Shown here one piece after another: positions 2,461 through 63,217 of a DNA stretch of 64,000 bases. This DNA comes from Alphaproteobacteria bacterium. GTDB taxonomy: Bacteria; Pseudomonadota; Alphaproteobacteria; UBA6615. Numbering within the stretch: the stretch's first letter is position 1; each line of letters starts with the position of its first letter. The DNA lies in assembly GCA_022449545.1 (NCBI GenBank), contig JAKUPN010000002.1, positions 123,255 to 187,254 on the forward strand, written 5' to 3'. Below the pieces are notes generated by a model, which had not been told where the DNA came from, ran no database searches, and saw nothing but the letters and a program-made list of their open reading frames with translations. The position numbers and the translations under genes were made by a program.

Positions 2461-4854
2461 ATGGTCAATGAAACGATAACAGCTCCAGACGCAAGTGTTC
2501 TTGGTCGACCAAATTCGTATATTGGTCGAAGTGTGCCACGCCCTAATGCAAAACGACTTATGGCGGGGCAGGGCCAGTTTGTTGATGATATGAAACTTCA
2601 GCGCATGGTTCATGTCGCATTTGTTCGATCTCCTTATGCACATGCCCACATAAAAGGAATTGATACTAAAGCTGCTTCAAGTAGTCCCGGGGTCGTCAAA
2701 GTAATAACTGCAAAAGATTTAGAATCATATTGTTCTCCTTGGGTAGGAGTGTTAACCCATTTCAAAGGACTGAAATCGGCTCCTCAGCATCCGCTTGCGG
2801 CTGATCATGTTTGTTGGCAGGGAGAAGCGGTTGCCGCAGTCGTAGCAAATAGTCGTGCAGAAGCAGAGGATGCAGTCGCTTTGGTTGAGGTTTCATATGA
2901 AGAACTACCCGTAGTAAGCGAACCTGAAACTGCAGCAGATCCTTCTACGCATGTGATTCATCCCGAATTAGGAGATAATATTGCTTTCGAAAATTCAGTT
3001 GAGGCTGGTGATGTTGATTCAGCATTTAGTAACGCCGCTTTAATAGTAGAAGAAAACTTTCTTTTTGAACGCCACACAGGCGTTACGCTCGAACCTAGGG
3101 TTATGCTGTCTGATTACAATCAGACTGAGGACAAGTTAACTGTTTATATGTCTTTCCAGGCCCCTCACATGATGCAACATATTTTTGCTAAACATATCAG
3201 TGTGCCTGAGGGGAACGTTCGAGTTATTTGCCAAGATGTGGGAGGGTCGTTTGGCATAAAAGTACATATATACGCTGATGAGATGGCTACTGCGGCTATC
3301 TCTAAAATGTTAGGCAGGCCTGTTAAGTTTACCGCGGATAGGCTGGAGTCATTCGTAACTGATATTCACGCGCGACACCATAGGGTTAATGGACGTATGG
3401 CTTTTTCTTCTCAGGGAGAGATTTTGGGCATCGAAATAGACGCCCTAACTGGTATTGGCCCCTATTCGATGTATCCACGTACAAGCGCGATGGAAACGAA
3501 CCAAGTCTTAAACTTTACAGGCGGCCCCTATAAACATGAAAACTACAGGGCTAAATCTCAAGTTGTTTTTCAAAATAAAAATGTTATGTGCCAATATCGC
3601 GCTGTTGGCCATCCAATAGCATTTGCTGTCACTGAGGGCCTGCTAGAAAAGGGCGCCCATCAGTTAGAGATTGATCCAGTTGAAATTCGGCGGCTTAATT
3701 TAATTCCCGATGACGCATACCCCACTAAGGGAGCCAGCGGAATAATTCTAGAAGCATTGTCTCATGAGAAGAGTCTCGAGAAATTAATGGAAATGATGGA
3801 TTACGAGGCAATCAAAAGTGATCGGGATACACTTCGTGAATCAGGAGTTTATCGAGGCATCGGATTTGCAGCAATGATAGAGCTGACTAATCCAGGTGCG
3901 ATGATGTATGGGATTGGAGGGGCGCGTATTTCATCGCAGGATGGCGCTCAGGTGCGCCTTGATTCTGGTGGCTCAATTATAGTCCATCATAGTGTTACAG
4001 AGCAGGGTCAGGGGACAGATGCTATAATGGCTCAAATAGCTGCAACAGCCTTTGGAATTGAAATTGATAAAGTTCGGGTGGTTAGCGGAGACACAGATAA
4101 TGTGCCGACCGGCGGTGGAACATGGGGTTCTCGAGGTGCTGGCATAGGAGGCGAGGCTGTACTAATCGCATCTAAAGCCTTGCGCAATAACGTTGTCGAT
4201 TTAGCTGGACAGTTATTGCAGTCTGAGCCTGAGGCACTAGATATTGTTGAAGGCGTTATCGTCGATAAGGCGGATGGCACGGAACGCATGCCTTTAAGCG
4301 AAGTTGCAAGGATTGGTTATTTTCGCTCTGATTTAATACCGAAAGGTTTTCAAGCTGAGTTAATGGCAACCCGTCATTTCGTCCCTCGCGAATATAACAT
4401 TGCTTTTACAAATGGAATTCAAGCTTGTCATGTAGAGGTAGACCCTGAAACAGGTTTTGTAAAAATTTTAAAACATTGGGTTGTGGAAGACTGTGGCACA
4501 GTCATTAACCCTCTCCTGGTCGATGAGCAAGTACGGGGAGGTGTTATCTGGGGTCGCGGGGGGGCTTTACTTGAAGAATGTGTTTACGACGAAAGTGGTA
4601 ATATGATTAATGCGAATATGGCCGATTACCTGGTTCCTATGGCAATGGAGATGCCAGATATTGAAGTTGGGCATGTAGAAACACCGACAATGGATTCTGA
4701 GCTTGGCGCTAAGGGGGCTGGAGAAGCTGGAACCGCTGGAGCCCCAGCGGCAGTTATGAATGCGATCAATGATGCCATTAGGCCTTTTAACGCGCGTGTT
4801 TCTCATCAGCCGATTACACCGCAGAAGATTTTATCTGCTTTAGGAAAATTTTAG
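2461..4854 (+). CDS. xanthine dehydrogenase family molybdopterin-binding (large) subunit, CoxL/aldehyde oxidase-like
   Basis: The 797-aa product has a Mo hydroxylase large-subunit N-terminus and core (VAFVRSPYAHAHIKGID, GGSFG, GxGEAG near the C-terminus). A GGAG RBS is present. No adjacent FeS or FAD subunit genes were found. Confidence 0.8.
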   Translation: MVNETITAPDASVLGRPNSYIGRSVPRPNAKRLMAGQGQFVDDMKLQRMVHVAFVRSPYAHAHIKGIDTKAASSSPGVVKVITAKDLESYCSPWVGVLTHFKGLKSAPQHPLAADHVCWQGEAVAAVVANSRAEAEDAVALVEVSYEELPVVSEPETAADPSTHVIHPELGDNIAFENSVEAGDVDSAFSNAALIVEENFLFERHTGVTLEPRVMLSDYNQTEDKLTVYMSFQAPHMMQHIFAKHISVPEGNVRVICQDVGGSFGIKVHIYADEMATAAISKMLGRPVKFTADRLESFVTDIHARHHRVNGRMAFSSQGEILGIEIDALTGIGPYSMYPRTSAMETNQVLNFTGGPYKHENYRAKSQVVFQNKNVMCQYRAVGHPIAFAVTEGLLEKGAHQLEIDPVEIRRLNLIPDDAYPTKGASGIILEALSHEKSLEKLMEMMDYEAIKSDRDTLRESGVYRGIGFAAMIELTNPGAMMYGIGGARISSQDGAQVRLDSGGSIIVHHSVTEQGQGTDAIMAQIAATAFGIEIDKVRVVSGDTDNVPTGGGTWGSRGAGIGGEAVLIASKALRNNVVDLAGQLLQSEPEALDIVEGVIVDKADGTERMPLSEVARIGYFRSDLIPKGFQAELMATRHFVPREYNIAFTNGIQACHVEVDPETGFVKILKHWVVEDCGTVINPLLVDEQVRGGVIWGRGGALLEECVYDESGNMINANMADYLVPMAMEMPDIEVGHVETPTMDSELGAKGAGEAGTAGAPAAVMNAINDAIRPFNARVSHQPITPQKILSALGKF

Positions 4855-4893
4855 ATTTATTAATTAAGTAATTAAAAATTTGGTGAAGGTTTA

Positions 4894-5586
4894 GTGTCTG
4901 ATATTGAGATCATTAGCTCTGCAACATGTCCTTTTGCGCAAAGAACAAGAATGGTTCTTTTGGAAAAAAACATCAATTTTGCGCTAATTGAAATTGACCT
5001 TGAAGACAAGCCAGACTGGTTTAAGGAAATTTCTCCTTACGGTAAGGTTCCAGTATTAAAGCACGACGGTAATATCGTGGTTGAATCAAGTATTATCAAT
5101 GAGTACTTAGAAGAAGTTTTTCCCAAAAACCCCCTGTTGCCGCTTGAGCCATCTAAAAGGGCTTTAGCTCGTAGGTGGATTGATTTTTCGAATGTAAGAC
5201 TGATTCCATATATATATAAAATAATGTTGGCGCAGGATATTGAAGCGCAAAATTTCAATGCTAAAAAACTAACTCAAGCATTATTAATGATAGAACATGA
5301 TGGCCTGGGTTCAACTTCTTCAGGTCCATATTGGCTCGGAGAAGATGTGGGGCTTGTTGATTTAAGTTTTTTACCCCACCTTCAGCGCATTTGTGTTTTG
5401 GAATATTATAGGAATTTTTATATTCCAGCGGAATGCGTGCTTTTAAATGCTTGGCTTCAGTTAATGTCCTTACGTCCGTCTGTTAATGCGGTATCATCTG
5501 AAAAGAGTGAATTAATTAAAAATTGGTCTAAGTACGCCTTAAACACTAGCACTGGCACAACCGCTGAAGATATGCGTGACCAATAA
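4894..5586 (+). CDS. glutathione S-transferase family protein
   Basis: The N-terminus has a thioredoxin-fold signature (ATCPFAQRTRMVLLEKNI, VPVLKHDGNIVVESSIINEYL). It starts at a GTG. Confidence 0.65.
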   Translation: MSDIEIISSATCPFAQRTRMVLLEKNINFALIEIDLEDKPDWFKEISPYGKVPVLKHDGNIVVESSIINEYLEEVFPKNPLLPLEPSKRALARRWIDFSNVRLIPYIYKIMLAQDIEAQNFNAKKLTQALLMIEHDGLGSTSSGPYWLGEDVGLVDLSFLPHLQRICVLEYYRNFYIPAECVLLNAWLQLMSLRPSVNAVSSEKSELIKNWSKYALNTSTGTTAEDMRDQ

Positions 5587-5703
5587 ATTATGATGTATTG
5601 GAAAACAAAACTATCTGACCAAAATAATTATAGCTTAATTGTTGGCGATTAGCTCACCTGCTAAAAAACAAAAAGTTATTGCTTGCTTCGCGATGGAGAA
5701 AAA

Positions 5704-6936
5704 ATGGTACACATAAGTGAAATGCCTGAACATTTAGCAAAGGCTTTGATAAACCAAGAATTGCCTGTTTATGAATCTACCCCTTGGACTGATTTAAAAT
5801 CTCTCAAAGAAAGTAGGATTGCTTTAATTAGCACGGCTGGTCTGCACCGCAGCGTTGACTCTCCTTTTGTGGCGGGAGCTGGTGACTACAGAATTATTCC
5901 TGATGAATGGGACATGGATGATCTGGTAATGAGCCATGTGTCCACCAACTTCGATCGAACTGGATTCTTTCAAGACCTCAATACTGTCTTTCCCATCGAT
6001 CGACTACATGAGTTGGACGAGGAAGAAGTTATAGGCTCCGTAGCCTCTCGCCATTATTCATTTATGGGAGCTACTCCTCCGCATTTAATGGAAACTGTCG
6101 CACGTGATCTCGCTGGGCTTCTTAAAGAAGATGAGGTTAACGCTGTGCTTTTGGTTCCTGTCTGACCTCAATGTACGCGCGCCGTTGGCGGGCTGTCACA
6201 TGTTTTAGAAAGCGAAGGAGTAGCAACTACACATATAAGCTTGGTTCGCATTCATACTGAAAAGATGAAGCCTCCAAGGGCTTTAGCAGTTCCATTTGAA
6301 TTAGGCAGGCCGTTTGGTGCCCCTAATGAGGTCGAATTTCAAAGGAAAGTTCTGCATAACTGTCTCGAATTACTAGAACGAGAATCAGGCCCTGTCCTTG
6401 AGGATTTTTCTGATTTGCCGCCGGTTGATGAAAATCAAGGCTCAGAGAATTGGGCCTGTCCAGTTAATTTTGCTCCGCCTATGGATGATCTGAATGACGC
6501 AGATTTAATCTATCAGTCTTTATTACAAGAGACAAACCTTTTACGGCCTTGGTATGAAGAAGCGGTAAGGAACTATAAACGGTCAGCATTTGGTGTTTCA
6601 GGAAAGACAACAGCTGAGATTGTCAGATTTATTGCCGATCTTTTGGTTGATCCTCAAAATCAGCAGCCACCTATTGACGGCGTGAATCTTGGCACGGGAT
6701 TTAAAAGAATGGCTGATGATTTGCGTTATTTTTATACAGAAGCAGCTATAGCGCGTCCCGATAAAAAATCGTCCGATATTGATGTAGCTAACTGGCTTTG
6801 GGGTGAAACGACCTTGGGTAAGGTACTGGTGGCTATACGTGATTATGCTATGGAGTGCGATGAGCCGTCACTAAAAGTCTTGTCGGTAACAGCCATGGTG
6901 CCTAGCCATCAGCGTCATCGAACAAAGCACGGTTAA
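5704..6936 (+). CDS. glycine/betaine/sarcosine/D-proline reductase family selenoprotein B (GrdB-like); the in-frame TGA at 6163-6165 is read as selenocysteine
   Basis: Track ORFs 5683..6165 and 6241..6936 are in the same frame, and the 75 nt between them contain no stop other than the TGA. Read-through gives ...LLVPV-U-PQC-TRAVGG..., a U-x-x-C motif. A SECIS-like hairpin follows the TGA. The most likely start is the ATG at 5704, which has a GGAG RBS. The conceptual product is about 410 aa, matching the selenoprotein B family size. The family assignment is from recalled similarity, not a search. Confidence 0.6.
6171..6201 (+). promoter_or_regulatory. candidate bacterial SECIS element (SelB-binding hairpin) just 3' of the in-frame UGA
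   Basis: The sequence AUGUACGCGCGCC-GUUG-GCGGGCUGUCACAU lies at +6..+36 after the UGA. It has a lower stem AUGU/ACAU, a GC-rich upper stem GCGCGCC/GGCGGGC with one mismatch, and an apical G/U-containing loop about 20 nt from the UGA. It stands out as GC-rich in AT-rich surroundings. Confidence 0.45.
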
Positions 6937-6963: not shown

Positions 6964-9186
6964 TTACTCAAATACTAGCGATGGTAGTGTTCCTCTGATT
7001 TCGTTGACAGAACCAATAATAGTTGCATCAGGTGCAGACGTTTTAATTAACTCTGCAACGCATTCCTCGGCAAAATCCTCGGAAATAGAGAATAAAAGTC
7101 CTCCAGCTGTTTGAGGGTCGAATAATATAGGATAGGCATTATGACTTATGGGTTTGTGGTAACCAGTCATGGCATTTTGATTGTCTTCCTTCAGGGTGCT
7201 CTCAATTCCTTGTCTGGATAGTTCTGCAGCTCCTTCTAGTAGCGGGAGCGAACTAAGATTTAGGGAGGCACTTACGTTGGAGGCGTTCAACATTTCCACT
7301 AAATGCCCTAACAAACCGAAGCCGGTTACATCTGTGCACGCTTCGACCCTATACTTTTGCAATATAGGAACAAGCGGCCCTAATGAACGCTGCATTGACG
7401 TTATTGCTTGTTCTATCCAGTCTCCACGAGACTTACCTTGCATATCGGCAGCAAATAATATTCCGGTGCCTAAAGGCTTAGTTAAGATTAGTATGTCTTG
7501 AGGCTTTAAAGCTCCTTTGCGCATGATTTTTTCTGGATCAACGTAACCGTTGACAGTCAGCCCAAATGCCATTTCAGCCCCTTCTCCGGTATGTCCTCCT
7601 GCTAGGACTGCATCTGCTTCACTAAGTGTTTTTGTGGCTCCTAACAATAGCTGATAAAGATCGTCTGAAATGATATTTTCATTATTATGTGGCAATAGGA
7701 TGGCCGCAAGCGCTGAGTGTGGTTTAGCTCCCATGGCGAAAATATCTCCTAAACAATGATTAGAAGCTATTTGTGCAAATATATAGGGGTCATCAATGAA
7801 ACTACGAAATTGATCAACGCTTTGAATCAATGCTTTGCCCGACGGTGGAATTATTACAGCAGCGTCATCCGGTGATTCTAGGCCCTGCACCAATCCCTGT
7901 TTAGTTTGGGCAGGCAGTCTATCCAAGGCTTGATGCAGAATTGTTGAAGCAACTTTAGCGCCACAACCGCCACATCGCATTTCCTCTATAATATCATCTT
8001 TACCGTTTGATTTTTTTGTGGCCGACATCTGAGGTAAATTTTGGTATTTTTCTATCCATCTGCGATCTATCCAGTCTTTCCAATGCCAGACCCATTTTCC
8101 TGAGAGCATTATAGAGCCACGAGCTGCGATTGCTCTGCCATCCCCGGTCGTAATTAATGCCAGTGTTTGTTTTTGGGGTTTATATTTTTTTAAGGGAAAT
8201 TCGATAGCTGCTCGTCTTAAGTTCTCTGCTAAGTATGGCCCTTGACGAACTGCATATACCCCTGACTTTGGTAAGTCATAGTTTTCAAGGGATGCTATGT
8301 CACCGGTTGCATAAACTATAGGATGTGAAACAGAACGCAGATTTTTATCTATCCTAATAAAGCCGTTCCGATCTAGGGCTAATCCTGTATCTGCTAGCCA
8401 AGAGGGGGCCTCAGCATTTGTAACCAAGATTGTTCTATCTGCTGGTAATATTTTTCCATTAGAAAGAATTACACTATCAGTGTTAATTTGATTTATTTTT
8501 GTGTCCGTTATAGCCGTAATTCGTCGCTTTTTTATTACATCAATTATTTTTCTTCTAGCAGTCTTATTGAAGTTTGGAAGTAGAGTGCTGAAACCTTCAA
8601 TTATAAAGATTGATAATTTTTCTGGTGTCTTAATTAACGAATGATTGCTGCTTCGTAATTGTTGGTCTAATGATAGGCTCAACTCTACCCCGCCAGCTCC
8701 TCCCCCAACGATAACAATATTATAATTATCTGATTTATCTGAGATTTCTTTATTAATTTCAGCCTGTTCTTTTAAAAAGAGATTGATTGGCTTGACAGGC
8801 AAGGCGTTTTCAGCGCCGCTTATGTCGGAAGATTTTGGGACACTACCGGTGTCAAGTGACAGTAAGTCGAACCTAACATCTGGCCTTCCATCGACGGATA
8901 TTAATCTTTTCGATAAGTCTAGATTTGTAGCTGATGCATGAATAAATCTTGCCCCCGCGAATTTGCTAAGTTTCCGTAGATCTATGAGACTTTCATCTGT
9001 TTTATAGTTTTGTGCTATCAGTCCTGGCACCATTCCAGAATATGGAGTTACAAGATCGCGTGAAATTAAAGTAACCCTCAATCCAGACTGCGGTTTCATA
9101 CCAAACTTTTTTAATACGTGCAGATGACTGTGACCGCCACCGACCAGAACGACATCTTTTTGAAAAGGTTCAGAATTAGTATGCAT
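6964..9186 (-). CDS. selD: selenide, water dikinase SelD fused to an N-terminal FAD/NAD(P)-dependent pyridine nucleotide-disulfide oxidoreductase (NADH dehydrogenase-like) domain
   Basis: The N-terminal half has two Rossmann motifs (VVLVGGGHSH and IVIVGGGAGGVE). The C-terminal half carries the SelD catalytic motif RCGGCGAKV and PurM-like segments (LTKPLGTG, TDVTGFGLLGHL). The track start at 9252 would overlap the tRNA-Sec, so the start was moved to the ATG at 9186 (MHTNSEPF...). Confidence 0.8.
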   Translation of the reverse strand: MHTNSEPFQKDVVLVGGGHSHLHVLKKFGMKPQSGLRVTLISRDLVTPYSGMVPGLIAQNYKTDESLIDLRKLSKFAGARFIHASATNLDLSKRLISVDGRPDVRFDLLSLDTGSVPKSSDISGAENALPVKPINLFLKEQAEINKEISDKSDNYNIVIVGGGAGGVELSLSLDQQLRSSNHSLIKTPEKLSIFIIEGFSTLLPNFNKTARRKIIDVIKKRRITAITDTKINQINTDSVILSNGKILPADRTILVTNAEAPSWLADTGLALDRNGFIRIDKNLRSVSHPIVYATGDIASLENYDLPKSGVYAVRQGPYLAENLRRAAIEFPLKKYKPQKQTLALITTGDGRAIAARGSIMLSGKWVWHWKDWIDRRWIEKYQNLPQMSATKKSNGKDDIIEEMRCGGCGAKVASTILHQALDRLPAQTKQGLVQGLESPDDAAVIIPPSGKALIQSVDQFRSFIDDPYIFAQIASNHCLGDIFAMGAKPHSALAAILLPHNNENIISDDLYQLLLGATKTLSEADAVLAGGHTGEGAEMAFGLTVNGYVDPEKIMRKGALKPQDILILTKPLGTGILFAADMQGKSRGDWIEQAITSMQRSLGPLVPILQKYRVEACTDVTGFGLLGHLVEMLNASNVSASLNLSSLPLLEGAAELSRQGIESTLKEDNQNAMTGYHKPISHNAYPILFDPQTAGGLLFSISEDFAEECVAELIKTSAPDATIIGSVNEIRGTLPSLVFE

Positions 9187-9216
9187 GAATAGCTTTAGTG
9201 TTATAGAAATTGATTG

Positions 9217-9312
9217 TGGCGGAAGAGAGTGGGAGTCGAACCCACCAGGCACGTCTGACGCCCCTCACCGGATTTGAAGTCCGAGCGCCCCACCGGGGTG
9301 CGATCCTCTTCC
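9217..9312 (-). tRNA. selC: tRNA-Sec (selC), anticodon UCA
   Basis: The reverse complement reads GGAAGAGG-AU-CGC(A)CCC[CGGU]GGGGCG-CUCGGA[CUUCAAA]UCCGG-long variable arm-GUGGG[UUCGACU]CCCAC-UCUCUUCC-G-CCA. It has an 8-bp acceptor stem, a 5-bp T stem, a D-arm with a CGGU loop, a UCA anticodon in a CUUCAAA loop, a long extra arm and an encoded CCA. It is 96 nt long. Confidence 0.85.
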
Positions 9313-11960: not shown

Positions 11961-13895
11961 TTAATCATCATTATTCTTTTCGGTGCTGGGGAAAAGTTTA
12001 TTAATGGCGCCTATCTGCTTTCGAGTGTTGCCTTCGCGTTTGGAAAGTCCTGAGCGATCAAAAAACTCTAATATTTCAATAGTTAGATTACGCCCAATTT
12101 TGGTGTGATCTTTAAACACTCTGGGGCTTACCCCTTGAAGTTCACTTTGGGATAAATCGGAGAAAATATTTGCTAAATTTTTTATTGCGCTTGTTTCAAA
12201 AAACCGGTTTTTCCCGACTTGAATAACTAAGCCAGCTTTAGCCGCATTACGCAGAGCAGTCATCACTACTTCAGGTGGTTTGCTTATTTCGTTCGCTAAG
12301 TCGTGAATAACAGGCGGTTGAAACGGTTTATTAGTTATGATGGGCTGGATCTCTTTCCACAAATCCAAATCTTTCTGATCTAAAATTGGTTTACGATTCG
12401 GCTTGTATAAGAACATACCATCAGATGAAATTATGTTTTCATCTACTAAAGAGTTTACTATTTCAGAAAAGACACCATCAATTAGTTTTCTTTTTATGTT
12501 TTGGTTTAGCTGTAATAAACTGGGACCTATCTTGTTACTATGATTTATATGATACTCATCAAGTGCAGACAGTGCCTCGTCTCGTAAAACGCCCCATATA
12601 GCCTTGGACAAAGCTATTATTCGCTGGTTGGGGCTAATAATAATTGCTTTAAGGTCTGTCGCTAATTTGGTTGCCTGCCCAACAGGCAAATTTCTTGTAA
12701 TTGAAAAAAGCTCTATATCTAGACCCGAAGGTGACAAATTTAGAGCCTTTTCTAATGCGATAGAATCGTCTTCATTATTAAGAGCCTCCAGCATTCTAAC
12801 TCTTTCTTGGCGGGCGCGACCTCGATTAGGAGGAAAAATATCGATTACATACCCACCACCAACTGTACGCTGGGCGGATTGATCTCTAATTATAAATCGA
12901 TCTCCTGCCACAGCCCCTATTGGGGTATCAAGAACCAATTGTGCAAAGGAATCTTCCCCAGGAATTACTTTTTCATTATTTAAAAGGGCAATACGTCCTG
13001 TTACGTCAGCTGCGCCAAGGTGTACATGCACTGATGTCCAGTGTTTAAAAGGTCGTTTTTCGTTTTCTAAGATACTTAAGTTAACATCTATCTTTCTTAT
13101 CGTTTTCATTAAAGGGTTAGAGACCACCCAATCTCCTCTCCGTACCAGTTCCTTGTCAATGCCACTTAAGTTTATAGCGCAACGTTGACCAGTAGAACCG
13201 TCTTCTGAGCTTTGGCTGTTAGCCCGTATGTCTCTTACACGGGCCGACCTCATTGTATTTGTTAAATAGACTTGATCTCCAACTTTTATTTGGCCGGAAA
13301 AAATAGTTCCTGTGACAATTAGGCCCGCTCCAGGCTTTATGAACGCTCTGTCAATAGCTAACCTAAACTCTCCGCTATCTGTTCTATTTTTTGGGTTTTT
13401 TGCAACATGTAAAAGGTGATCTGTGAGAGACTCTATCCCTCGTCCAGTAACGGCAGAAACAGGAAAAATAGGAAAATTTTTTAAGTTAGTGGCACTCAAT
13501 AAATTGGTTGTTGATCTAGTTACTTCTTCTATTCTATTTGATTCAACTCTATCAATTTTTGTAAGAGCTACGGCTCCTTCGCTGATTCCCAGTATATCCA
13601 ATATTGCCAAATGCTCTCTTGTTTGTGGCATCGGCCCATCGTCGCTTGCTATTACAAGTAATGCATAATCTATGCCAGTTACTCCAGCTAGCATGTTGCC
13701 TATGAATCTTTCATGTCCAGGAACGTCAACAAAACCAATAACTTTTTGTTCTTGGTATTGATGGTATGCGAACCCTAAATCAATAGTCATCCCCCGTTTT
13801 TTTTCTTCAGGCAGGCGATCGGCATCTTCTCCAGTTATTGCTTTAACTAAGAGGGTTTTTCCATGATCGATATGTCCAGCAGTAGCTATTATCAT
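11961..13895 (-). CDS. selB: selenocysteine-specific translation elongation factor SelB
   Basis: The N-terminus [44 protein letters not shown] is near-identical in pattern to E. coli SelB. The 644-aa product has a C-terminal winged-helix extension, and its start overlaps the selA stop. Confidence 0.85.
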
Positions 13896-15304
13896 TTTAA
13901 ATTTAATAAGGACATTTGAGAAACTAGTTCTTCTTCGTTTTCAAGGCATCTCAAATCCAACCAGTAAGAATCATTCATTATTCGACCAATAACTGGAACA
14001 GGTAATGATCTTAAACGTTCTGATAGTTGTTTAAGCACAGCTCCTTGTCCTTTTTTAACTATCGGAGATATTACTAGAGCATAACTATCAAGGTTCTCTA
14101 TAGGAAGAGCCCCACTACCAATTTGACTTCGGGTTGGTAAAACCTTGATCTTAAAACTATTACCGAGTTTTTTTCTGAGTTCAGCCGCTGTTCTGTCTGC
14201 CATCTCTTTTATTTCATCTGATGATCGAGTTAATATGCGCAATGACGGCAAACGTTTCATCAGTCGATCGGGATCGTTATAAAGACGAAGTGTTGCGGCC
14301 AAACAAGCGATGGTTATTTTATCACAACGCAGAGCACGCTTAAGTGGATTTTTCTTGAGTCTTTTGATCAGGTCAGATCGTCCAACGATTAATCCTGCTT
14401 GCGGCCCTCCCAAAAGTTTATCGCCTGAAAAGGTTACTAGATCAGCTCCATCTTTTATTGATTCTTGGGGAGTTCTTTCATGCGGCAAACCATAAACTTC
14501 GAGGTCCACCAAAGTTCCACTTCCTAAATCAACCACCAAGGGCAGTTCATATTTGTGGGCTAGAGTTGCAAGGTCGAGTTCTGATGCGGCACTAGTGAAG
14601 CCTTCAATAACATAGTTTGATGTGTGGACAGCCATTATTAGACCTGTTTTTGGACCAATAGCCTTTTCAAAATCAGAAAGATGGGTTCTGTTTGTCGTTC
14701 CTACTTCGATAAGGCGGCAATCCGATCGAGACATGATATCAGGAATCCGGAATGAACCCCCTATCTCGACCAACTCGCCTCTCGAAACGGGGACTTCCTT
14801 TTTTCTCGCTAAAGTATTTAGGACTAACATCACTGCGGCAGCGTTGTTATTAACCACTGTCGCTGCTTCAGCTCCGGTAAGAGAACAGATTAAATCTTCT
14901 ATATGGTCATCTCGATCGCTTCTCTCGCCTCTCTCTAAATCGAATTCTAAATTAGTTGTGCCAGAAGCAACCTCTTTCATGGCCTCAATAGCTTCAGAGG
15001 CAATTGGCGATCGCCCCAGGTTTGTGTGTAAAACTGTGCCGGTTAGGTTTAATACTGGCTTTAGTGTCGGTTTGTTGGCGCTATGGAGATAATCAGAAAC
15101 TAGAGATAAAATTTTATTTTCTTTAAAATCGAAGGTTGTTGTTTTTGATGTGCTTAGTTCTTTGCGTATGTCTTTGAGCACTGACCTGACCGCACTAACA
15201 GTTGCTTTTCGCCCGAACGATTCAATTAGCGCTATGAATGGTTCAGAGCGAAGTAAACGATCTACTGAAGGCAGTTTATAAAAGCCTGACATATTATTTT
15301 TCAT
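13892..15304 (-). CDS. selA: L-seryl-tRNA(Sec) selenium transferase SelA
   Basis: The N-terminus (YKLPSVDRLLRSEPFIAL) matches SelA, and the 470-aa product shows a PLP-fold. It overlaps selB by 4 nt (ATGA). The start may be the second ATG. Confidence 0.85.
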   Translation of the reverse strand: MKNNMSGFYKLPSVDRLLRSEPFIALIESFGRKATVSAVRSVLKDIRKELSTSKTTTFDFKENKILSLVSDYLHSANKPTLKPVLNLTGTVLHTNLGRSPIASEAIEAMKEVASGTTNLEFDLERGERSDRDDHIEDLICSLTGAEAATVVNNNAAAVMLVLNTLARKKEVPVSRGELVEIGGSFRIPDIMSRSDCRLIEVGTTNRTHLSDFEKAIGPKTGLIMAVHTSNYVIEGFTSAASELDLATLAHKYELPLVVDLGSGTLVDLEVYGLPHERTPQESIKDGADLVTFSGDKLLGGPQAGLIVGRSDLIKRLKKNPLKRALRCDKITIACLAATLRLYNDPDRLMKRLPSLRILTRSSDEIKEMADRTAAELRKKLGNSFKIKVLPTRSQIGSGALPIENLDSYALVISPIVKKGQGAVLKQLSERLRSLPVPVIGRIMNDSYWLDLRCLENEEELVSQMSLLNLK

Positions 15305-18110: not shown

Positions 18111-20438
18111 TTAATTTTTATTCAGAGCTGCCCATAATTTCTCTGAGGTAGCTGGCATGTCCATTTCGGTTATATTATGCATTGAGAGGGCGTCAATGAT
18201 CGCATTCATGCCAGCTGGTAAAGCTCCAGTGGTTCCTGCCTCACCTGCTCCTTTTGCCCCAATGGGGTTTGTGGTACAGGTGACACTGTGAAATCCTAAA
18301 TTCATCATAGGAAGGTCATCTGCTCTAGGCATCATATAGTCCATAAAAGAACCAGACAGAAGCTGTCCCTCCTTATCATAAACTGCGTGTTCTCCAAGAA
18401 CTTGGCCCAACCCTTGTGCGACCCCCCCATGGACTTGCCCGTGAACTATCATTGGATTTATCACGGTCCCACAATCATCTACGGCAGTGTAGCCGACAAC
18501 TTCTATTTCCCCAGTCTCTGAGTCGATTTCAACTTCACAGATATGACAACCATTCGGGTAGGTTTGTTCTGGAGATGTAAAATTTTCTTCTGAGTCCAGA
18601 CTTTTAGGTATGTCACGAGGCAAATTATTAAGTAATTTTATCTTTGTGGCTAACTCAAAAATATTGATTACTCTGTCGGTCCCAGTAATTCGGAAATTAC
18701 CATCAGAATATTCAATATCTGCGGAAGATGTTTCAAAAATGTGTCCTGCCAGCTTGCGTCCTTTTTCAATGACCGAGTCTATTGTGACAGATAATGCTCC
18801 ACTCGCTAAAACAGCAGAACGGGAGGCAACTGAAGCAAACCCAGTGGCTGGGGTATTTTCACTGTTTCCCTCTATGATGCGAACTTTTTCGAATGGCACA
18901 TCTAGTAACTCTGACACGACTTGGGCAAAGGAGGTTTGATGTCCTTGGCCATTGGATTGTACTGCTAGAACCGCATTGACAAACCCATCATCTGAAAACT
19001 CTATCTTAGCTCCTTCTTCAAGGTAACCTCCAGCGGTTTCGACAAAACAAGCCATCCCGATCCCTCTTAATTTTCCTCTTGATTGGGCCTCAGTTCGACG
19101 TTCTTCAAATTGTTCCCAGTTTGACAACTTTAAGGCTTTATCCATTGCCGCCTCAAATTCTCCACTGTCGTATTTTTGTTCCAAAGATGTTGTGTAGGGC
19201 ATCTTTGCGGGATGAATAAAATTTCGGCGTCTAATTTCAACACGATCTAGCCCGGTTTCCCTCGCTGCCTCATCCATAAGTCTCTCAAGTATATAAGCTG
19301 CCTCGGGACGCCCTGCGCCCCTGTAGGGTCCTATCGGAAGGTTATTTGTCAAAACACAACGTACACGAAAATGAACCGACGGATTATCATAACAACCTGT
19401 TAGACAATTACAGACATTTCTCGTCGCTGCAGCTGGTCCATGAGAGGACAAGTAGCCCCCCATAGAGGCTAACATGTCCACACGTAGACCAAGTATTTTT
19501 CCATTTTCGTCCAAAGCTAATTCACCTCTGATTACCCCATCCCGGGCCTGGTTATCGCTTAAAAATGCTTCAGATCTGCTTCCCTGCCATTTCACTGGTC
19601 GACCGACTTCTTTTGCTGCGTAAAGGCAGGCCACGTATTCTGGATAAGCCTGCGTTTTCATTCCAAATCCACCACCGACATCTTGGGTAACAATATGAAT
19701 TTTTTCGGGAGGTACTTTAAAGATGGATTCTGCGAGCATTCGGCGCATGGCGTTTACTCCTTGTGACCCAGAGAAAAGTTGATACCTTTCGTTTTCTTCA
19801 TCCCATATTGCGTTTGCACTCCGAGGTTCCATCGAGGCTGCTACAATTCGATTAGTTTTCAGAGTTAATTTAGTTATGTGGTGAGCGTTAGAAAAAGCTA
19901 TGTCAGTATCTTCTTTTTTACCAATTCGGAAGTCTAGGCAAATATTATTGGGCATATTATCCCAGAGTTGGGGCGCGCCTTCTGCTACAGCTTGTTCCAG
20001 GTCGACCACAGAGTCGAGGAGTTCATAGTCTATATCAACCAGCTCAATTGCGTCAGTAGCTAAAGAAATGCTTTCAGCTATCACCATTGCAATGATTTCC
20101 CCAACGTGACGTACTTTTTCATGAGCCAATGCAGGTCTCATTGATAAAGCCATTGGAGAGCCATCATAGTTTGGGAAGGGTGTCATATTTGGGATATCCC
20201 CAATTTTTGAATTCTGAAGGTCTTTTCCAGTAAATACCGCAATTACTCCGGGGGCATCCTTTGCTGCGCTAGTATCTATTGATTTAAGTAACGCATGAGC
20301 GAATGGTGCCCTTAGGAAGGCGACATAGGCTTGATTATTAAAAGATTTATCGTCGGTATATTTTCCAGCGCCAGTAATCAAGTTTTCATCTTCTTGACGC
20401 AGGACGTGTTGTGAAATACCAAAAGTCCCGGCAGACAT
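18111..20438 (-). CDS. xanthine dehydrogenase family molybdopterin-binding (large) subunit, second paralog
   Basis: The 775-aa product has a Mo hydroxylase large-subunit pattern (AFLRAPFAHALLKSID, GGGFG, GAKGAGEAG). No FeS or FAD subunit genes are adjacent. Confidence 0.8.
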   Translation of the reverse strand: MSAGTFGISQHVLRQEDENLITGAGKYTDDKSFNNQAYVAFLRAPFAHALLKSIDTSAAKDAPGVIAVFTGKDLQNSKIGDIPNMTPFPNYDGSPMALSMRPALAHEKVRHVGEIIAMVIAESISLATDAIELVDIDYELLDSVVDLEQAVAEGAPQLWDNMPNNICLDFRIGKKEDTDIAFSNAHHITKLTLKTNRIVAASMEPRSANAIWDEENERYQLFSGSQGVNAMRRMLAESIFKVPPEKIHIVTQDVGGGFGMKTQAYPEYVACLYAAKEVGRPVKWQGSRSEAFLSDNQARDGVIRGELALDENGKILGLRVDMLASMGGYLSSHGPAAATRNVCNCLTGCYDNPSVHFRVRCVLTNNLPIGPYRGAGRPEAAYILERLMDEAARETGLDRVEIRRRNFIHPAKMPYTTSLEQKYDSGEFEAAMDKALKLSNWEQFEERRTEAQSRGKLRGIGMACFVETAGGYLEEGAKIEFSDDGFVNAVLAVQSNGQGHQTSFAQVVSELLDVPFEKVRIIEGNSENTPATGFASVASRSAVLASGALSVTIDSVIEKGRKLAGHIFETSSADIEYSDGNFRITGTDRVINIFELATKIKLLNNLPRDIPKSLDSEENFTSPEQTYPNGCHICEVEIDSETGEIEVVGYTAVDDCGTVINPMIVHGQVHGGVAQGLGQVLGEHAVYDKEGQLLSGSFMDYMMPRADDLPMMNLGFHSVTCTTNPIGAKGAGEAGTTGALPAGMNAIIDALSMHNITEMDMPATSEKLWAALNKN

Positions 20439-31055: not shown

Positions 31056-32264
31056 ATGGATGATCCTATTGGTGCTTTCGTGCCCCACGGTAGATATAGA
31101 ATTGAAGGTAAAAACAGCAAAGAGAGTGGTACACTTTCTGGATTAACGTTTGCGGTGAAAGATATAATTGATGTAGAGGGGCATATCACCGGATGTGGAA
31201 ATCCTGACTGGTTGCGGACTCATAAAAAAGCTCTCCGAACAGCACCTTGTATAAGGCGTCTTTTAGATGCTGGCGCTACGTTAGTTGGCAAAACAGTAAC
31301 CGAGGAACTTGCAACTGGTTTAACTGGAGAAAATATTCATTATGGTACACCAATTAATGTCAATGCTCCTGGACGCGTTTCGGGTGGGTCATCTTCTGGC
31401 TCAGCTGCCGCAGTGGCGGCAGAGCTAGTCGACTTCTCTATTGGCTCTGATACAGGAGGTTCGGTCCGGGCTCCTGCCAGTTTTTGTGGCATTTATGGGA
31501 TACGTCCTAGTCACGGACGCGTTTCAATGCAAGGAGTTATGAAGCTTGCACCTAGTTTTGATGTTATTGGCTGGTTTTCACTTGATCCAATTCTTTTAAG
31601 AAATATAGGAACCGTACTTTTTGATAGACCTAATCCTATTCCTTCACCCGGTAGGTTATTGGTAGCAGAGGACGTGATGGAACTACTTGATTATAATATA
31701 CGTAATGAATTGATGAAGGCCGTTGATATTGTGGCTAAGTTTCTCGGGCCTTCAAAACTTATTCGTGTTTCAGACCTCGAAGGAATTCCCGGCTTGGATA
31801 AATGGGTGAATGTAACTAGAGCTATATGGGGTGGTGAGGCCTGGGCTGTTCACAAAGAATGGATTAACTCGGTAAAGCCCAGGTTCGGTTCAGGTGTTGC
31901 TGCTAGATTTACTGCTCGCTCAAAAGTCACTACAAGTGAAATTGAGATTGCTCGTTTACAAAGGGATGTTATTTCTGCACATCTTAAGGAGCTTCTATCA
32001 GGCGGGGACGTGCTTGCTTTACCGGCTGCGCCTGGTATTGCTCCTCCAATTGGAGGAAGTGATCTAGAAATTGATCCTTTTAGAGAGGCCAACGAGCCTA
32101 TTGGCTGTACCTCGGGTTTGGCTGGCTTACCGCAAATAAGCTTGCCGTTGACAAGTTTTGATGGGCTTCCTCTTGGTTTGGGGATCGCCGCCGGCCCAGG
32201 CAATGATGAATTGTTGCTAGATTTAGCTGTTACAATGGCTGAAAATAATATCACACCCCAATAA
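31056..32264 (+). CDS. amidase (amidase-signature family)
   Basis: It carries the AS signature GGSSSGSAAAVAA and the K...S-cis-S catalytic pattern. Confidence 0.8.
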   Translation: MDDPIGAFVPHGRYRIEGKNSKESGTLSGLTFAVKDIIDVEGHITGCGNPDWLRTHKKALRTAPCIRRLLDAGATLVGKTVTEELATGLTGENIHYGTPINVNAPGRVSGGSSSGSAAAVAAELVDFSIGSDTGGSVRAPASFCGIYGIRPSHGRVSMQGVMKLAPSFDVIGWFSLDPILLRNIGTVLFDRPNPIPSPGRLLVAEDVMELLDYNIRNELMKAVDIVAKFLGPSKLIRVSDLEGIPGLDKWVNVTRAIWGGEAWAVHKEWINSVKPRFGSGVAARFTARSKVTTSEIEIARLQRDVISAHLKELLSGGDVLALPAAPGIAPPIGGSDLEIDPFREANEPIGCTSGLAGLPQISLPLTSFDGLPLGLGIAAGPGNDELLLDLAVTMAENNITPQ

Positions 32265-32286
32265 AATAATAAAAGGCAGAACGTTT

Positions 32287-33486
32287 ATGGGTGACTTGTT
32301 TAGAAAAGAAGTGTCGGGTTTTTGTAGCCATAAAAACATAAAAATGAAGGGCGCCAATAACGGACCTCTAAAAAAATTAACATTTGCAGTAAAGGACATT
32401 ATTGATGTAGCTGGATCGGTAACAGGTGCTGGAAATATTAAATTTTTTGAAGAAGGAAGTCCGGCTCTAAAGAATGCAGAAATTGTTCAAATCTTATTGG
32501 ACGCGGGGGCAGATCTCGAGGGTAAAACTATAACAGAAGAGTTCGCTTATGGACTAATAGGAGAAAATTTTCATTATGGAACTCCGAGGAATGGCGCTGC
32601 GCCGGGGAGAATACCTGGAGGCTCATCCTCCGGCTCCGCCTCAGTGGTGTCTAATGGGCAAGTAGATTTTGCTCTAGGCACGGATACAGGGGGATCTGTT
32701 CGAGTGCCCGCCTCATTCTGCGGAATATACGGATTACGACCTAGTCACGGAAGGGTACCCATAAGTGGGGTCATGCCACTAGCTCCCAGCTTGGACACGT
32801 GTGGCTGGTTTGCCCGGACCCCAGAGTTAATGAAATTAGTGGGAAAGGTTGCGCTTGAGTGGAAACAACCTACATTTGGAGCAGACATTTACCTGGCTAG
32901 AGACACATTTTCCATTCTTGATGAGGAATCTGAAGCAGCGCTTGCAGCTGCTATAGGCTCTTTGTCAAAATTAATTGGGCCTCCGCAAGAAATAGATGTT
33001 GGTGTTATACAAGGCATGCAAGATCTGGGCGATTGGGCAAAGGTTATGAAGGTTGTACGTGGCTCCGAAGCAGCAGCTTCACGCCTTGATTGGATTAGGG
33101 AATTTAAGCCTGAGATGGGCCCAGGGTTTCGAGAACGATTCGAAGCCGGTGGACTATATACTCAGAATGAAATTTCCGAAGCCACAAATAAAAGAGAAAT
33201 AATTAAAACTTATTTGGATAAGTTGCTTTCAGATAATATTATTATGGTAGTGCCAGCTGCACCGACTTCACCACCCCCTGTTTCTAGTCAGGAAAAAGTT
33301 TACGATAATCTACGAAGCAAAAATGAGCTCTATAATTGTATAGCTCCTCTTGGGCAGCTGCCACAGATCAGCTTACCGCTGGCAAATGTGAAAGGGTTGC
33401 CTATAGGATTAGGCGTTATAGGGGGAAATGGAAGTGATGAATTGCTTTTGGAACTCGCAAATCAACTTAATAATCTTGAGTCATAA
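32287..33486 (+). CDS. amidase (amidase-signature family), tandem paralog
   Basis: It carries GGSSSGSASVVS and GTDTGGSVRVPASFCGIYGLRPSHG. Confidence 0.8.
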   Translation: MGDLFRKEVSGFCSHKNIKMKGANNGPLKKLTFAVKDIIDVAGSVTGAGNIKFFEEGSPALKNAEIVQILLDAGADLEGKTITEEFAYGLIGENFHYGTPRNGAAPGRIPGGSSSGSASVVSNGQVDFALGTDTGGSVRVPASFCGIYGLRPSHGRVPISGVMPLAPSLDTCGWFARTPELMKLVGKVALEWKQPTFGADIYLARDTFSILDEESEAALAAAIGSLSKLIGPPQEIDVGVIQGMQDLGDWAKVMKVVRGSEAAASRLDWIREFKPEMGPGFRERFEAGGLYTQNEISEATNKREIIKTYLDKLLSDNIIMVVPAAPTSPPPVSSQEKVYDNLRSKNELYNCIAPLGQLPQISLPLANVKGLPIGLGVIGGNGSDELLLELANQLNNLES

Positions 33487-61990: not shown

Positions 61991-63217
61991 TTACCTCTGA
62001 CATAAAGAAGAAAGTACCATAGCGAGATCAAGTAGAGCCTCGTCTCCTCCTTCCCAACCAATAAACGATAAACCAATAGGACAATTTCTCATATTTTCAG
62101 CAGGGATGGTAACTTGAGGAAGGCCACTTAGTCCTGAAATGCATGTAAGCAAAAGAGTATTAGCACGAAAGAATTCTAACTGATCTAATGTGCTGTTCAC
62201 TTCAGGAGCTATTACGGGTGCTGTTGGGAGACATACTATTGTCCCAGGAGAGATCAGCTCTCTCAAATTCTTTTGAACGTTTTCTCGGACATTTTTGGCT
62301 GCGGAGAACTCTTCTAGGCTAATATTTGCAGCCATTTTGAATCGCTCTTTAATGCCAGGCCCCAAATTTGGTTTATTTTTTTCTACCCATGGTAAGTTAG
62401 TGTTTCTAACTTCATACGCCTGAATTATTTTGAAAGCATCTGACCATTTATCAAGTTCTCCCGATGCAATTTTTATATCTAATCTGATGGGTAAAAAATC
62501 TGAGGCGTTTTTTAAAAAACTCTTTAAGGTTTTAGAGACTTCAGGATCCGTCTTACTAAAGCAATCTTCTGCAACTAAAACTTTATTAACTTCTCCACCA
62601 GATATTCTTTTATCAAGGAGAACGGAGCCTACCGTCCGAAATAAATGTGCATCGTTAGCAAACCATCCTGCTGTATCAAAGCTAGGGGCCATCGGGCGTC
62701 CTCCGGCCAAATCAACCCTTCCGTGAGTTGGCCTAATTCCATAAAGTCCGCAAAAAGAAGCTGGTATTCGCACAGATCCCCCTGTATCGCTTCCAAGAGA
62801 TATGTCACATAATTCTGCTGCTAAGGCCGCAGCAGATCCAGAAGAGGATCCTCCTGGCAGTCGTCCTATGGCACGCAAGTTTTTGGGAGTTCCATAATGT
62901 GCGTTAGCACCAGTTAGACTATAGAAAAACTCGTCGCAAATCGAAATGCCAACTATATCTGCACCTGCTTCTAAAAGCCTTTCTACAGCTTTAGCAGTTG
63001 TTTTGGCGGGTTTAGCCTTATCCAAGAAGTCGGGGCTACCATTTCCAGTTTTACGTCCTGAAATGTCATAGAGGTCTTTTATTATTAATGTTTTTCCAAC
63101 AAGAGGTCCGTTCTCAGAACCTAAGATTGGCTCTGTTATATTATGTGGGACTAAGCAACCAACATTATCAGAGGGTACAACGACCTTGTTTTTATAATCT
63201 TTTGTATGTTTTTTCAT
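61991..63217 (-). CDS. amidase (amidase-signature family), third paralog
   Basis: It carries GGSSSGSAAALAA and GSDTGGSVRIPASFCGLYGIRPTHG. Confidence 0.8.
   Translation of the reverse strand: MKKHTKDYKNKVVVPSDNVGCLVPHNITEPILGSENGPLVGKTLIIKDLYDISGRKTGNGSPDFLDKAKPAKTTAKAVERLLEAGADIVGISICDEFFYSLTGANAHYGTPKNLRAIGRLPGGSSSGSAAALAAELCDISLGSDTGGSVRIPASFCGLYGIRPTHGRVDLAGGRPMAPSFDTAGWFANDAHLFRTVGSVLLDKRISGGEVNKVLVAEDCFSKTDPEVSKTLKSFLKNASDFLPIRLDIKIASGELDKWSDAFKIIQAYEVRNTNLPWVEKNKPNLGPGIKERFKMAANISLEEFSAAKNVRENVQKNLRELISPGTIVCLPTAPVIAPEVNSTLDQLEFFRANTLLLTCISGLSGLPQVTIPAENMRNCPIGLSFIGWEGGDEALLDLAMVLSSLCQR

Follow-up and report, generated by a model that had tools for sequence, protein, structure and literature searches.

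We analyzed a stretch of 64,000 nucleotides from an alphaproteobacterial genome assembly (contig JAKUPN010000002.1, positions 123,255–187,254 of the forward strand), hereafter the window, and found that its positions 5704–6936 very probably form one functional gene for a 410-residue selenoprotein of a known marine "PrdB-like" family. We put the probability of this reading, which is drawn from sequence comparison, at about 0.9. In the predicted protein, an in-frame UGA would be decoded as selenocysteine (Sec) under the direction of a Sec insertion sequence (SECIS) hairpin located immediately downstream. The features of the gene, all of them on the forward strand, are as follows.

5704–6936, forward strand: predicted selenoprotein gene, complete coding sequence of 410 aa (153 aa, Sec154, and 256 aa), ending with a TAA stop.
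6163–6165, forward strand: UGA predicted to be read as selenocysteine, Sec154; TGA in 83 of 83 aligned loci, Cys in the full-length homologs examined.
6172–6174, forward strand: codon for Cys157, which ends the U-x-x-C motif as its putative resolving Cys and is unchanged in all 82 distinct sequences.
6177–6193, forward strand: conserved core of the putative SECIS hairpin, defined by suppressed synonymous variation, an RNAalifold consensus, and compensatory changes.
6171–6201, forward strand: extended hairpin as first described, defined by its minimum-free-energy fold, with a lineage-specific lower stem.
5764–6378, forward strand: PrdB-like alpha/beta domain with the predicted redox center, residues 21–225, defined by TIGR04483, Pfam GRDB, and an AlphaFold2 model of the homolog P0119.
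6379–6933, forward strand: family-specific C-terminal domain, residues 226–410 (185 aa), mostly helical, defined by conservation and the AlphaFold2 model of P0119.

Translation of 5704–6936 yields 410 codons followed by a stop, with a single internal stop codon, the TGA at 6163–6165 (codon 154), in the peptide context NAVLLVPV-*-PQC-TRAVGGLSHV. The two mechanical open reading frames (ORFs) found here, 5683–6165 and 6241–6936, share one frame. A preliminary description, made from the DNA sequence alone, had joined these ORFs into one gene and had proposed that read-through creates a Sec-x-x-Cys redox motif. Both proposals were borne out, with one TGA in the 410-codon frame and U154-P-Q-C157 in the translation. 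The ATG start at 5704 is preceded by GGAG and agrees with the N-terminal 153-aa pieces called in two syntenic loci (L001 and L002), both of which are split likewise. TGA is also the ordinary stop codon of 1 of 13 nearby genes, and the genetic code is therefore not reassigned.

The TGA is conserved across a wide range of relatives. A scan of species-representative genomes returned at least 592 stretches encoding relatives, from which 80 loci were kept; adding L001, L002, and the window gives 83 loci, and the codon aligned with position 6163 is TGA in every one of them. The hosts are largely pelagic marine Alphaproteobacteria. The closest ones, at 60–77% identity, are marine Alphaproteobacteria and Rhodospirillaceae metagenome-assembled genomes (MAGs), and at 45–50% identity we found Desulfobacterota, Geobacter, Entotheonella, SAR116/Puniceispirillum, Chloroflexota, Beta- and Gammaproteobacteria, and a Desulfosporosinus. 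In these relatives, the peptide surrounding Sec is nearly invariant (PV-U-P-x-C-TRAVG[GA]L). Rather than being conserved as two separate proteins that end at this point, homologs with Cys in place of Sec (Cys-forms) run through both halves: these include P0068 (PVCLLCTRAVGG), P0119 (PVCPNCTRT), and more than 100 others of 408–436 aa. The TGA column is Cys in all the full-length homologs examined, and Cys157 is conserved as well when the window protein is aligned with them.

Most of the remaining database matches are fragments of ~250 aa that start just past the Sec position, which indicates that gene callers split the relatives in the same way. All of the Sec-containing relatives (Sec-forms) returned by protein searches are truncated, either to a 153-aa GRDB fragment or to a "hypothetical protein" of ~250 aa. 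When the family is clustered at 50% identity, most of the diverse clusters consist of fragments beginning just after the Sec position, and we therefore conclude that Sec-forms dominate the diversity of the family. One locus, in a Methyloligellaceae MAG (L025, ~4500–6300, forward strand), carries two tandem copies of a PrdB-like selenoprotein gene, called as N-terminal, C-terminal, N-terminal, and C-terminal pieces.

Comparison of the relatives further indicates that a GC-rich hairpin with its core at 6177–6193 is maintained within the coding sequence by selection at the RNA level. Since folding stability is not informative for a short GC-rich RNA, we used synonymous-site and covariation tests instead. 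Across the 82 distinct sequences, the third-position entropy of fourfold-degenerate codons is ~1.5–1.9 bits for the gene in general. Between codons +4 and +9 past the TGA (ACG CGC GCC GUN GGC GGG), it falls to 0.61, 0.29, 0.23, 1.05, 0.30, and 0.00 bits, before returning to 1.67 bits at +10. This collapse of synonymous variation reflects selection on the nucleotide sequence rather than on the protein. The GC content reaches 84% in the hairpin segment, whereas the gene as a whole has 44.6%. The RNAalifold consensus helix occupies alignment columns 21–37, which correspond to 6177–6193 in the window, and its loop contains the invariant G28/U29 (G6184/U6185). The core pairs are 6177–6193, 6178–6192, 6180–6190, 6181–6189, 6182–6188, and 6183–6187, closing an apical loop of G6184, U6185, and U6186, where G6184 and U6185 are invariant across the family. 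In a fuller model with 11 pairs, 80% of the cells pair, compared to 30–55% in controls in which the 3′ strand was slid. Compensatory changes were found in the hairpin (G-C to A-U, C-G to U-A, and G-C to U-A), with six double-change cells, whereas shuffles gave 2.4 ± 1.1 and reached six in 2 of 500 cases. Among the 10 most divergent variants, 8 fold alone to the same hairpin, with a loop of GU(N) or NGUNN.

The hairpin had originally been drawn at 6171–6201, with its loop ~20 nt downstream of the UGA in the geometry of a bacterial SECIS. The exact string is present and its minimum-free-energy fold is a hairpin of −13.6 to −16.2 kcal/mol, whose 6177–6193 part is conserved. The lower stem is not conserved: AUGUAC/GUCACAU is out of register in relatives, where its pairs are kept in only 50–80%. 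The proposed geometry stands, and falls in the range of ~10–40 nt in which a hairpin was to be sought, since the loop G-U sits 21–22 nt past the U of the UGA, in a loop of 3–5 nt. A nearly equal spacing from the UGA is known for the loop G-U (G23/U24) of the fdhF element of Escherichia coli. In the bacterial SECIS described in selenoproteome surveys, a conserved G likewise lies in a small apical loop, at a comparable spacing to the UGA. The element in the window differs from the E. coli fdhF type in two respects. First, it falls outside any Rfam family, as a search of Rfam at permissive E-values gave no family at this site, tRNA-Sec being the only match. Second, it is unusually invariant across phyla (ACGCGCGCCGUGGGCGGGC), because it overlaps with the conserved peptide TRAVGG.

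The machinery required for Sec decoding is encoded next to the gene. The preliminary description had placed selA, selB, selC, and selD within 9 kb, and we found all four of them at 8.4 kb or less from the selenoprotein gene, as follows.

9217/9221–9312, reverse strand: selC, tRNA-Sec with anticodon UCA, found by ARAGORN and by Rfam RF01852 (72.5 bits, E = 4e-14).
6964–9252, reverse strand: SelD of the Cys type (MRCGGCGAK) with an N-terminal pyridine-nucleotide disulfide oxidoreductase fusion (Pfam Pyr_redox_2, AIRS, AIRS_C).
11961–13895, reverse strand: selB, with C-terminal winged-helix domains (Pfam GTP_EFTU, Beta-barrel_SelB, SelB_WH_2nd_bact, SelB-wing_3).
13892–15304, reverse strand: selA, selenocysteine synthase (Pfam SelA, 533 bits, and Se-cys_synth_N).

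The association extends to relatives: in 29 of 82 loci, sel genes are found no more than 7 kb away, and 17 of 50 loci have tRNA-Sec at a distance of up to 10 kb. Several lineages outside the close clade share it, among them SAR116, a MAG of Hyphomicrobiales, and an alphaproteobacterium from Lake Baikal. The oxidoreductase part of the SelD fusion is ~400 aa, and in 26 of 82 loci, including 3 from outside the close clade, the selenoprotein gene has the fusion gene downstream. Fusions of NADH-dehydrogenase-like proteins to SelD have been reported before. The tRNA-Sec gene is located directly upstream of the selD-fusion gene, whose mechanical GTG start at 9252 overlaps it; because the mechanical ORF overruns the tRNA gene, the true start is probably an ATG near 9186 (MHTNSEPF...). 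In a gammaproteobacterial locus with the SelD fusion (L053, 816–913, reverse strand), ARAGORN called a "tRNA-???" of 98 nt whose anticodon is given as two bases, and which may be an atypical tRNA-Sec. When the window was scanned for further TGA-split ORF pairs, no other convincing selenoprotein gene was found.

We then compared the predicted protein to known families. The Pfam GRDB family (PF07355), against which the preliminary description had proposed a search, hits residues 27–151 with 35.8 bits, above the gathering score of 22 (E = 7e-9). The best NCBIfam match is TIGR04483 (PrdB), which aligns residues 21–225 to profile positions 13–219 of 238 (E = 3e-33), with a score of 115 bits against an equivalog cut-off of 300. 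In contrast, the profiles for GrdB, GrdF, and GrdH (TIGR01917, NF040794, and NF040795) match only at positions ~206–426, with 46–54 bits against cut-offs of 602–800; for GrdB itself, positions 206–423 of 431 align with residues 20–227 at 45.7 bits, the cut-off being 602. Since the alignment spans nearly all of PrdB and one half of GrdB, the N-terminal 225 residues are a PrdB-like domain, corresponding to the C-terminal half of GrdB. The length of 410 aa had been taken as fitting the GrdB family, which turns out to be a coincidence, the protein consisting of the counterpart of the GrdB C-terminal half only and of family-specific residues 226–410. For these last 185 residues, no family match was obtained in Pfam and no relative was found in the PDB. 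Nine of their residues are invariant or nearly so (C252, P253, F256, W283, Y284, R293, D339, E346, and P352), among which the invariant Cys252 (codon 6457–6459) lies within the motif ACP[VI]NF. An AlphaFold2 model of the Cys-form P0119, which is 43–44% identical to the window protein, has a mean predicted local distance difference test (pLDDT) score of 89.6 and a predicted template modeling score of 0.89. In this model, an alpha/beta domain precedes one that is entirely helical, and confidence is lowest in the Cys252 loop (pLDDT 53–59).

The family is already published, and its Sec status has been known since 2005, so that the original call of a selenoprotein gene is correct but not new. A survey of the Sargasso Sea (Zhang, Fomenko, and Gladyshev 2005; PMC1088965) listed 42 Sec genes under "Proline reductase PrdB, UxxC," which made it the third most abundant selenoprotein family there. 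A survey of the Global Ocean Sampling data (Zhang and Gladyshev 2008; PMC2398784) counted 235 Sec-forms and 110 Cys-forms for pfam07355. In a BLASTP comparison with the Sargasso sequence AACY01078217, the window protein is 36% identical over 234 aa (E = 3e-39), an alignment that takes in what follows Sec in the PrdB-like domain and also the C-terminal domain. AACY01078217 (...PVuPNCTRSVGAL...ACPIDF...LLPWHEL...) and several other sequences of the 2005 supplement have the same architecture as the window protein. The motifs shared with the marine "PrdB" family are PV-U-P-x-C-TR, PPRAL, GRPLG, GPVLED, ACP-x-F, PW, and EA..ARP. There is no difference in kind, and the window gene is a further ortholog. 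The earlier suggestion of a poorly characterized marine GrdB-like selenoprotein thus identifies the family published as "Proline reductase PrdB." The published bin is mixed, as it also includes a shorter subfamily without the C-terminal domain, exemplified by AACY01424071 (VPS-U-GLC, with ~120 aa after Sec; PMC1088965). The "proline reductase" selenoproteins listed for Anaeromyxobacter and Geobacter in a 2006 survey may belong to the same family as the window gene. To what was published, the present analysis adds 1) a quantified SECIS constraint, 2) a corrected domain architecture, 3) evidence against the "PrdB" name, 4) a link to genes for TauD, sulfatase, and glutathione S-transferase (GST), and 5) the truncation of Sec-forms in databases.

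The genes surrounding the Sec-forms were surveyed by scanning essentially all large ORFs of the window with Pfam, by clustering all ORFs within 7 kb in the 82 loci, and, for L001 and L002, from precomputed Pfam annotation. No PrdA-, GrdE-, GrdA-, or GrdC/D-type gene was found in the window, in L001 and L002, or among the recurrent neighbors of the 82 loci. The lack of a grdA/grdE-like partner nearby, noted at the outset, therefore holds for the whole window, where Pfam detects no GRDA or Gly_reductase domain. The gene directly upstream of the selenoprotein gene is the following.

4894–5586, forward strand: GST gene of the Cys type (TCPFAQR), a candidate thiol-recycling partner (Pfam GST_N_2, GST_N_3, Glutaredoxin).

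This GST has an omega-like motif (TCPF), is separated from the selenoprotein gene by a gap of 117 nt, and is kept in the close marine clade (24 loci unfiltered, 14 after filtering of shadow ORFs). The gene order in the clade of the window is CoA-transferase, acyl-CoA dehydrogenase, CoxL-type molybdoenzyme, GST, selenoprotein gene, and SelD fusion. In other loci, the neighbors include a 2-hydroxyacid dehydrogenase together with a family III CoA-transferase, a regulator of the Crp/Fnr type, a luciferase-like monooxygenase, or an AhpD-like selenoprotein gene. Neither TauD nor sulfatase genes were found in the window, and scans for promoters and terminators around the gene gave counts at chance level.

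The Cys-forms occur in a distinctive context. In three proteins of 708–724 aa (P0148–P0150), the family is fused to a TauD/TfdA Fe/2-oxoglutarate dioxygenase domain, and in every unfused context examined a TauD gene adjoins the Cys-form gene or is one gene away. The fusion and adjacency pattern was seen in six of six Cys-form contexts examined. Loci with such an arrangement are the following.

L083, 6001–8127, and L085, L086, and L088–L091: Cys-form loci with TauD fusion or adjacency.

The gene orders are TauD, VTT/DedA, GRDB-like in Halieaceae-type contigs, where the VTT/DedA membrane protein stands between the other two; GST, GRDB-like, TauD; or TetR, GRDB-like, TauD, MFS. Nearby are also a sulfatase gene, at least one GST gene, and GFA, DJ-1, and MAPEG genes. 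The TauD/sulfatase association is seen for Cys-forms, whereas the Sec clade of the window has GST alone. A literature search linking GRDB/PF07355 with TauD or sulfatase found nothing relevant. The GST of L088 was considered as an ortholog of the window GST and rejected, as the two are 29% identical in the N-terminal domain only and the L088 protein is of the Ser type (SPF instead of CPF).

How might such a protein be made and work? By analogy with known bacterial Sec decoding, SelB carrying Sec-tRNA(Sec) would bind the hairpin through its C-terminal winged-helix domain and insert Sec at the UGA. The PrdB/GrdB domain and the UxxC motif suggest that the Sec154 selenolate would then attack a small substrate as a nucleophile or reduce it, with Cys157 resolving the intermediate through an Se-S bond (selenenyl-sulfide). 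The center might be reduced again by a thiol system, most plausibly by glutathione via the upstream Cys-type GST, a suggestion based on the GST gene that immediately precedes the selenoprotein gene in the close clade and on the repeated occurrence of GST genes around Cys-forms. Going by gene context, the protein would work without a pyruvoyl subunit and would therefore be neither a D-proline nor a glycine reductase. Its substrate may possess a good leaving group; alternatively, handling of the substrate may fall to the C-terminal domain. We hold this enzymatic outline (attack by Sec154, resolution by Cys157, recycling by thiol and GST, and no pyruvoyl subunit) as tentative, at a little under even odds.

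A number of points weigh against the reading of 5704–6936 as a selenoprotein gene and against the function outlined for it. Sec incorporation and any activity would rest here on a comparison of sequences, and the mechanism would be carried over from PrdB and GrdB through the homology of one domain alone. The stability of the hairpin is not above chance when compared to dinucleotide shuffles, with z = −0.36 and −0.74 for the window and values between −1.9 and +0.9, which are not significant, for the divergent variants. Two of the 10 most divergent variants (L050 and L061) do not have the hairpin as their minimum-free-energy fold, and, since the element hardly varies, there is little covariation. 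As for the neighborhood, the ORF clusters of the 82 loci contain no neighbor that is conserved family-wide, the GST gene is, like the SelD fusion, confined to the close clade, and several of the clusters with high counts are antisense shadow ORFs. Since the GSTs of the window and L088 are not orthologous, the link between Sec- and Cys-forms through GST holds at the level of the superfamily only.

The main functional rival to the enzymatic outline is a role as redox carrier, in which the protein, as a generic thiol/selenol-disulfide oxidoreductase with a thioredoxin-type UxxC, would pass electrons to partners such as the TauD dioxygenase of the Cys-form loci without cleaving a bond itself. The surveys class the PrdB family among thiol-dependent redox proteins with UxxC (PMC1088965). 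No conserved substrate-activating partner was found, and GST, MAPEG, DJ-1, and GFA-type genes, all thiol-related, recur near Cys-forms. This alternative is possible, although we consider it rather unlikely.

Far less credible is that the gene encodes a genuine PrdB of D-proline reductase, converting D-proline to 5-aminovalerate with a PrdA encoded elsewhere. The family carries that name in the literature, as do the Joint Genome Institute labels on relatives, and the likeness to PrdB of Clostridium sticklandii and Clostridioides difficile is real: TIGR04483 is the best NCBIfam match, homology extends over nearly all of PrdB, and Sec lies inside one continuous match to the profile, in a UxxC motif as in PrdB rather than the UxxCxxC of GrdB. 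Selenolate and Se-S chemistry are probably common to both proteins. However, the score is far under the equivalog cut-off; the window protein has 410 aa instead of ~240 aa, with a conserved helical domain of 185 aa that is absent from PrdB; neither a PrdA pyruvoyl proprotein (or GrdE-type gene) nor PrdC is found near the gene; and the carriers are largely pelagic marine Alphaproteobacteria, not Stickland-type fermenters of amino acids. A 2026 review, where it treats PrdB, deals with the clostridial enzyme only, a 26-kDa protein with UxxC, GrdB having UxxCxxC. With GrdB, GrdF, and GrdH, the window protein shares PF07355 and a Sec region homologous to their C-terminal half. It lacks the N-terminal half of GrdB, its motif U-P-Q-C-T-R-A has no third Cys, and none of grdA, grdE, grdC, and grdD is present in the window. 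The window protein is thus very probably not a true PrdB or GrdB, as the features tested in its sequence and surroundings speak against the "PrdB" name. The name "proline reductase PrdB" has been given to a selenoprotein that ranks among the most abundant in the surface ocean. Since these features do not support it, Stickland-type proline reduction inferred in pelagic bacteria from this gene is probably wrong.

That the TGA is a true stop, separating a 153-aa GRDB fragment from a second protein of ~230–250 aa or resulting from a pseudogene or a sequencing error, can be dismissed as wholly improbable, for although public gene calls of Sec-forms all list two pieces or the 250-aa piece only and TGA is an ordinary stop in this genome, the TGA is kept at the same codon across phyla with protein conservation running through it, Cys homologs are single polypeptides, RNA-level constraint begins right past the TGA, the Sec machinery adjoins the gene, and the window has no start directly after the TGA, with GTT in place of the GTG at which gene callers let the second piece begin in relatives.

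Returning to the selenoprotein reading, which we favor, a more specific proposal can be made for the whole family. Because of the fusion and adjacency pattern seen in six of six Cys-form contexts, the PrdB-named family might be a stand-alone, pyruvoyl-independent Sec/Cys reductase of oxic marine bacteria, acting on a small and abundant organosulfur, sulfated, or quaternary-amine metabolite in a pathway with a TauD dioxygenase, a sulfatase, and glutathione transferases. The helical domain with Cys252 would replace the substrate-activating subunit of the Prd and Grd systems. We regard this proposal as speculative and doubtful in its present form. If true, it would tie the selenium demand of the ocean to a specific step in the turnover of marine dissolved organic matter. 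The link to TauD, sulfatase, and GST is a concrete starting point toward the real substrate, and the relatives assigned to Candidatus Puniceispirillum and SAR116 belong to a group that may offer an experimental system. In addition, the string TGACCnnnnTG[CT]ACGCGCGCCGTGGGCGGGC is a simple and specific flag for mending the truncated annotations of Sec-forms.

Finally, three further observations were made in the window and in the loci of relatives. An AhpD-like gene, a second split selenoprotein gene, is found just upstream of the PrdB-like gene in a Rhodospirillales subclade (L031, 1405–2030, forward strand; similar in L026, L028, L029, L032, L041, and L046), and its in-frame TGA forms part of a CxxU motif (...TLNGCSY-*-TGHNHALG...); read-through was checked in L031 only. 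The window contains two genes for large subunits of CoxL-like molybdoenzymes of the xanthine/CO dehydrogenase family (2461–4854, forward strand, and 18111–20438, reverse strand), next to which no small or medium subunit genes were noticed and one of which is part of the conserved upstream synteny block. It also contains three amidase-signature ORFs of ~400 aa, two of them adjacent (31056–33483, forward strand, and 61994–63217, reverse strand), in which the best-scoring stretch corresponds to approximately positions 40–220 only of the 445-position profile.

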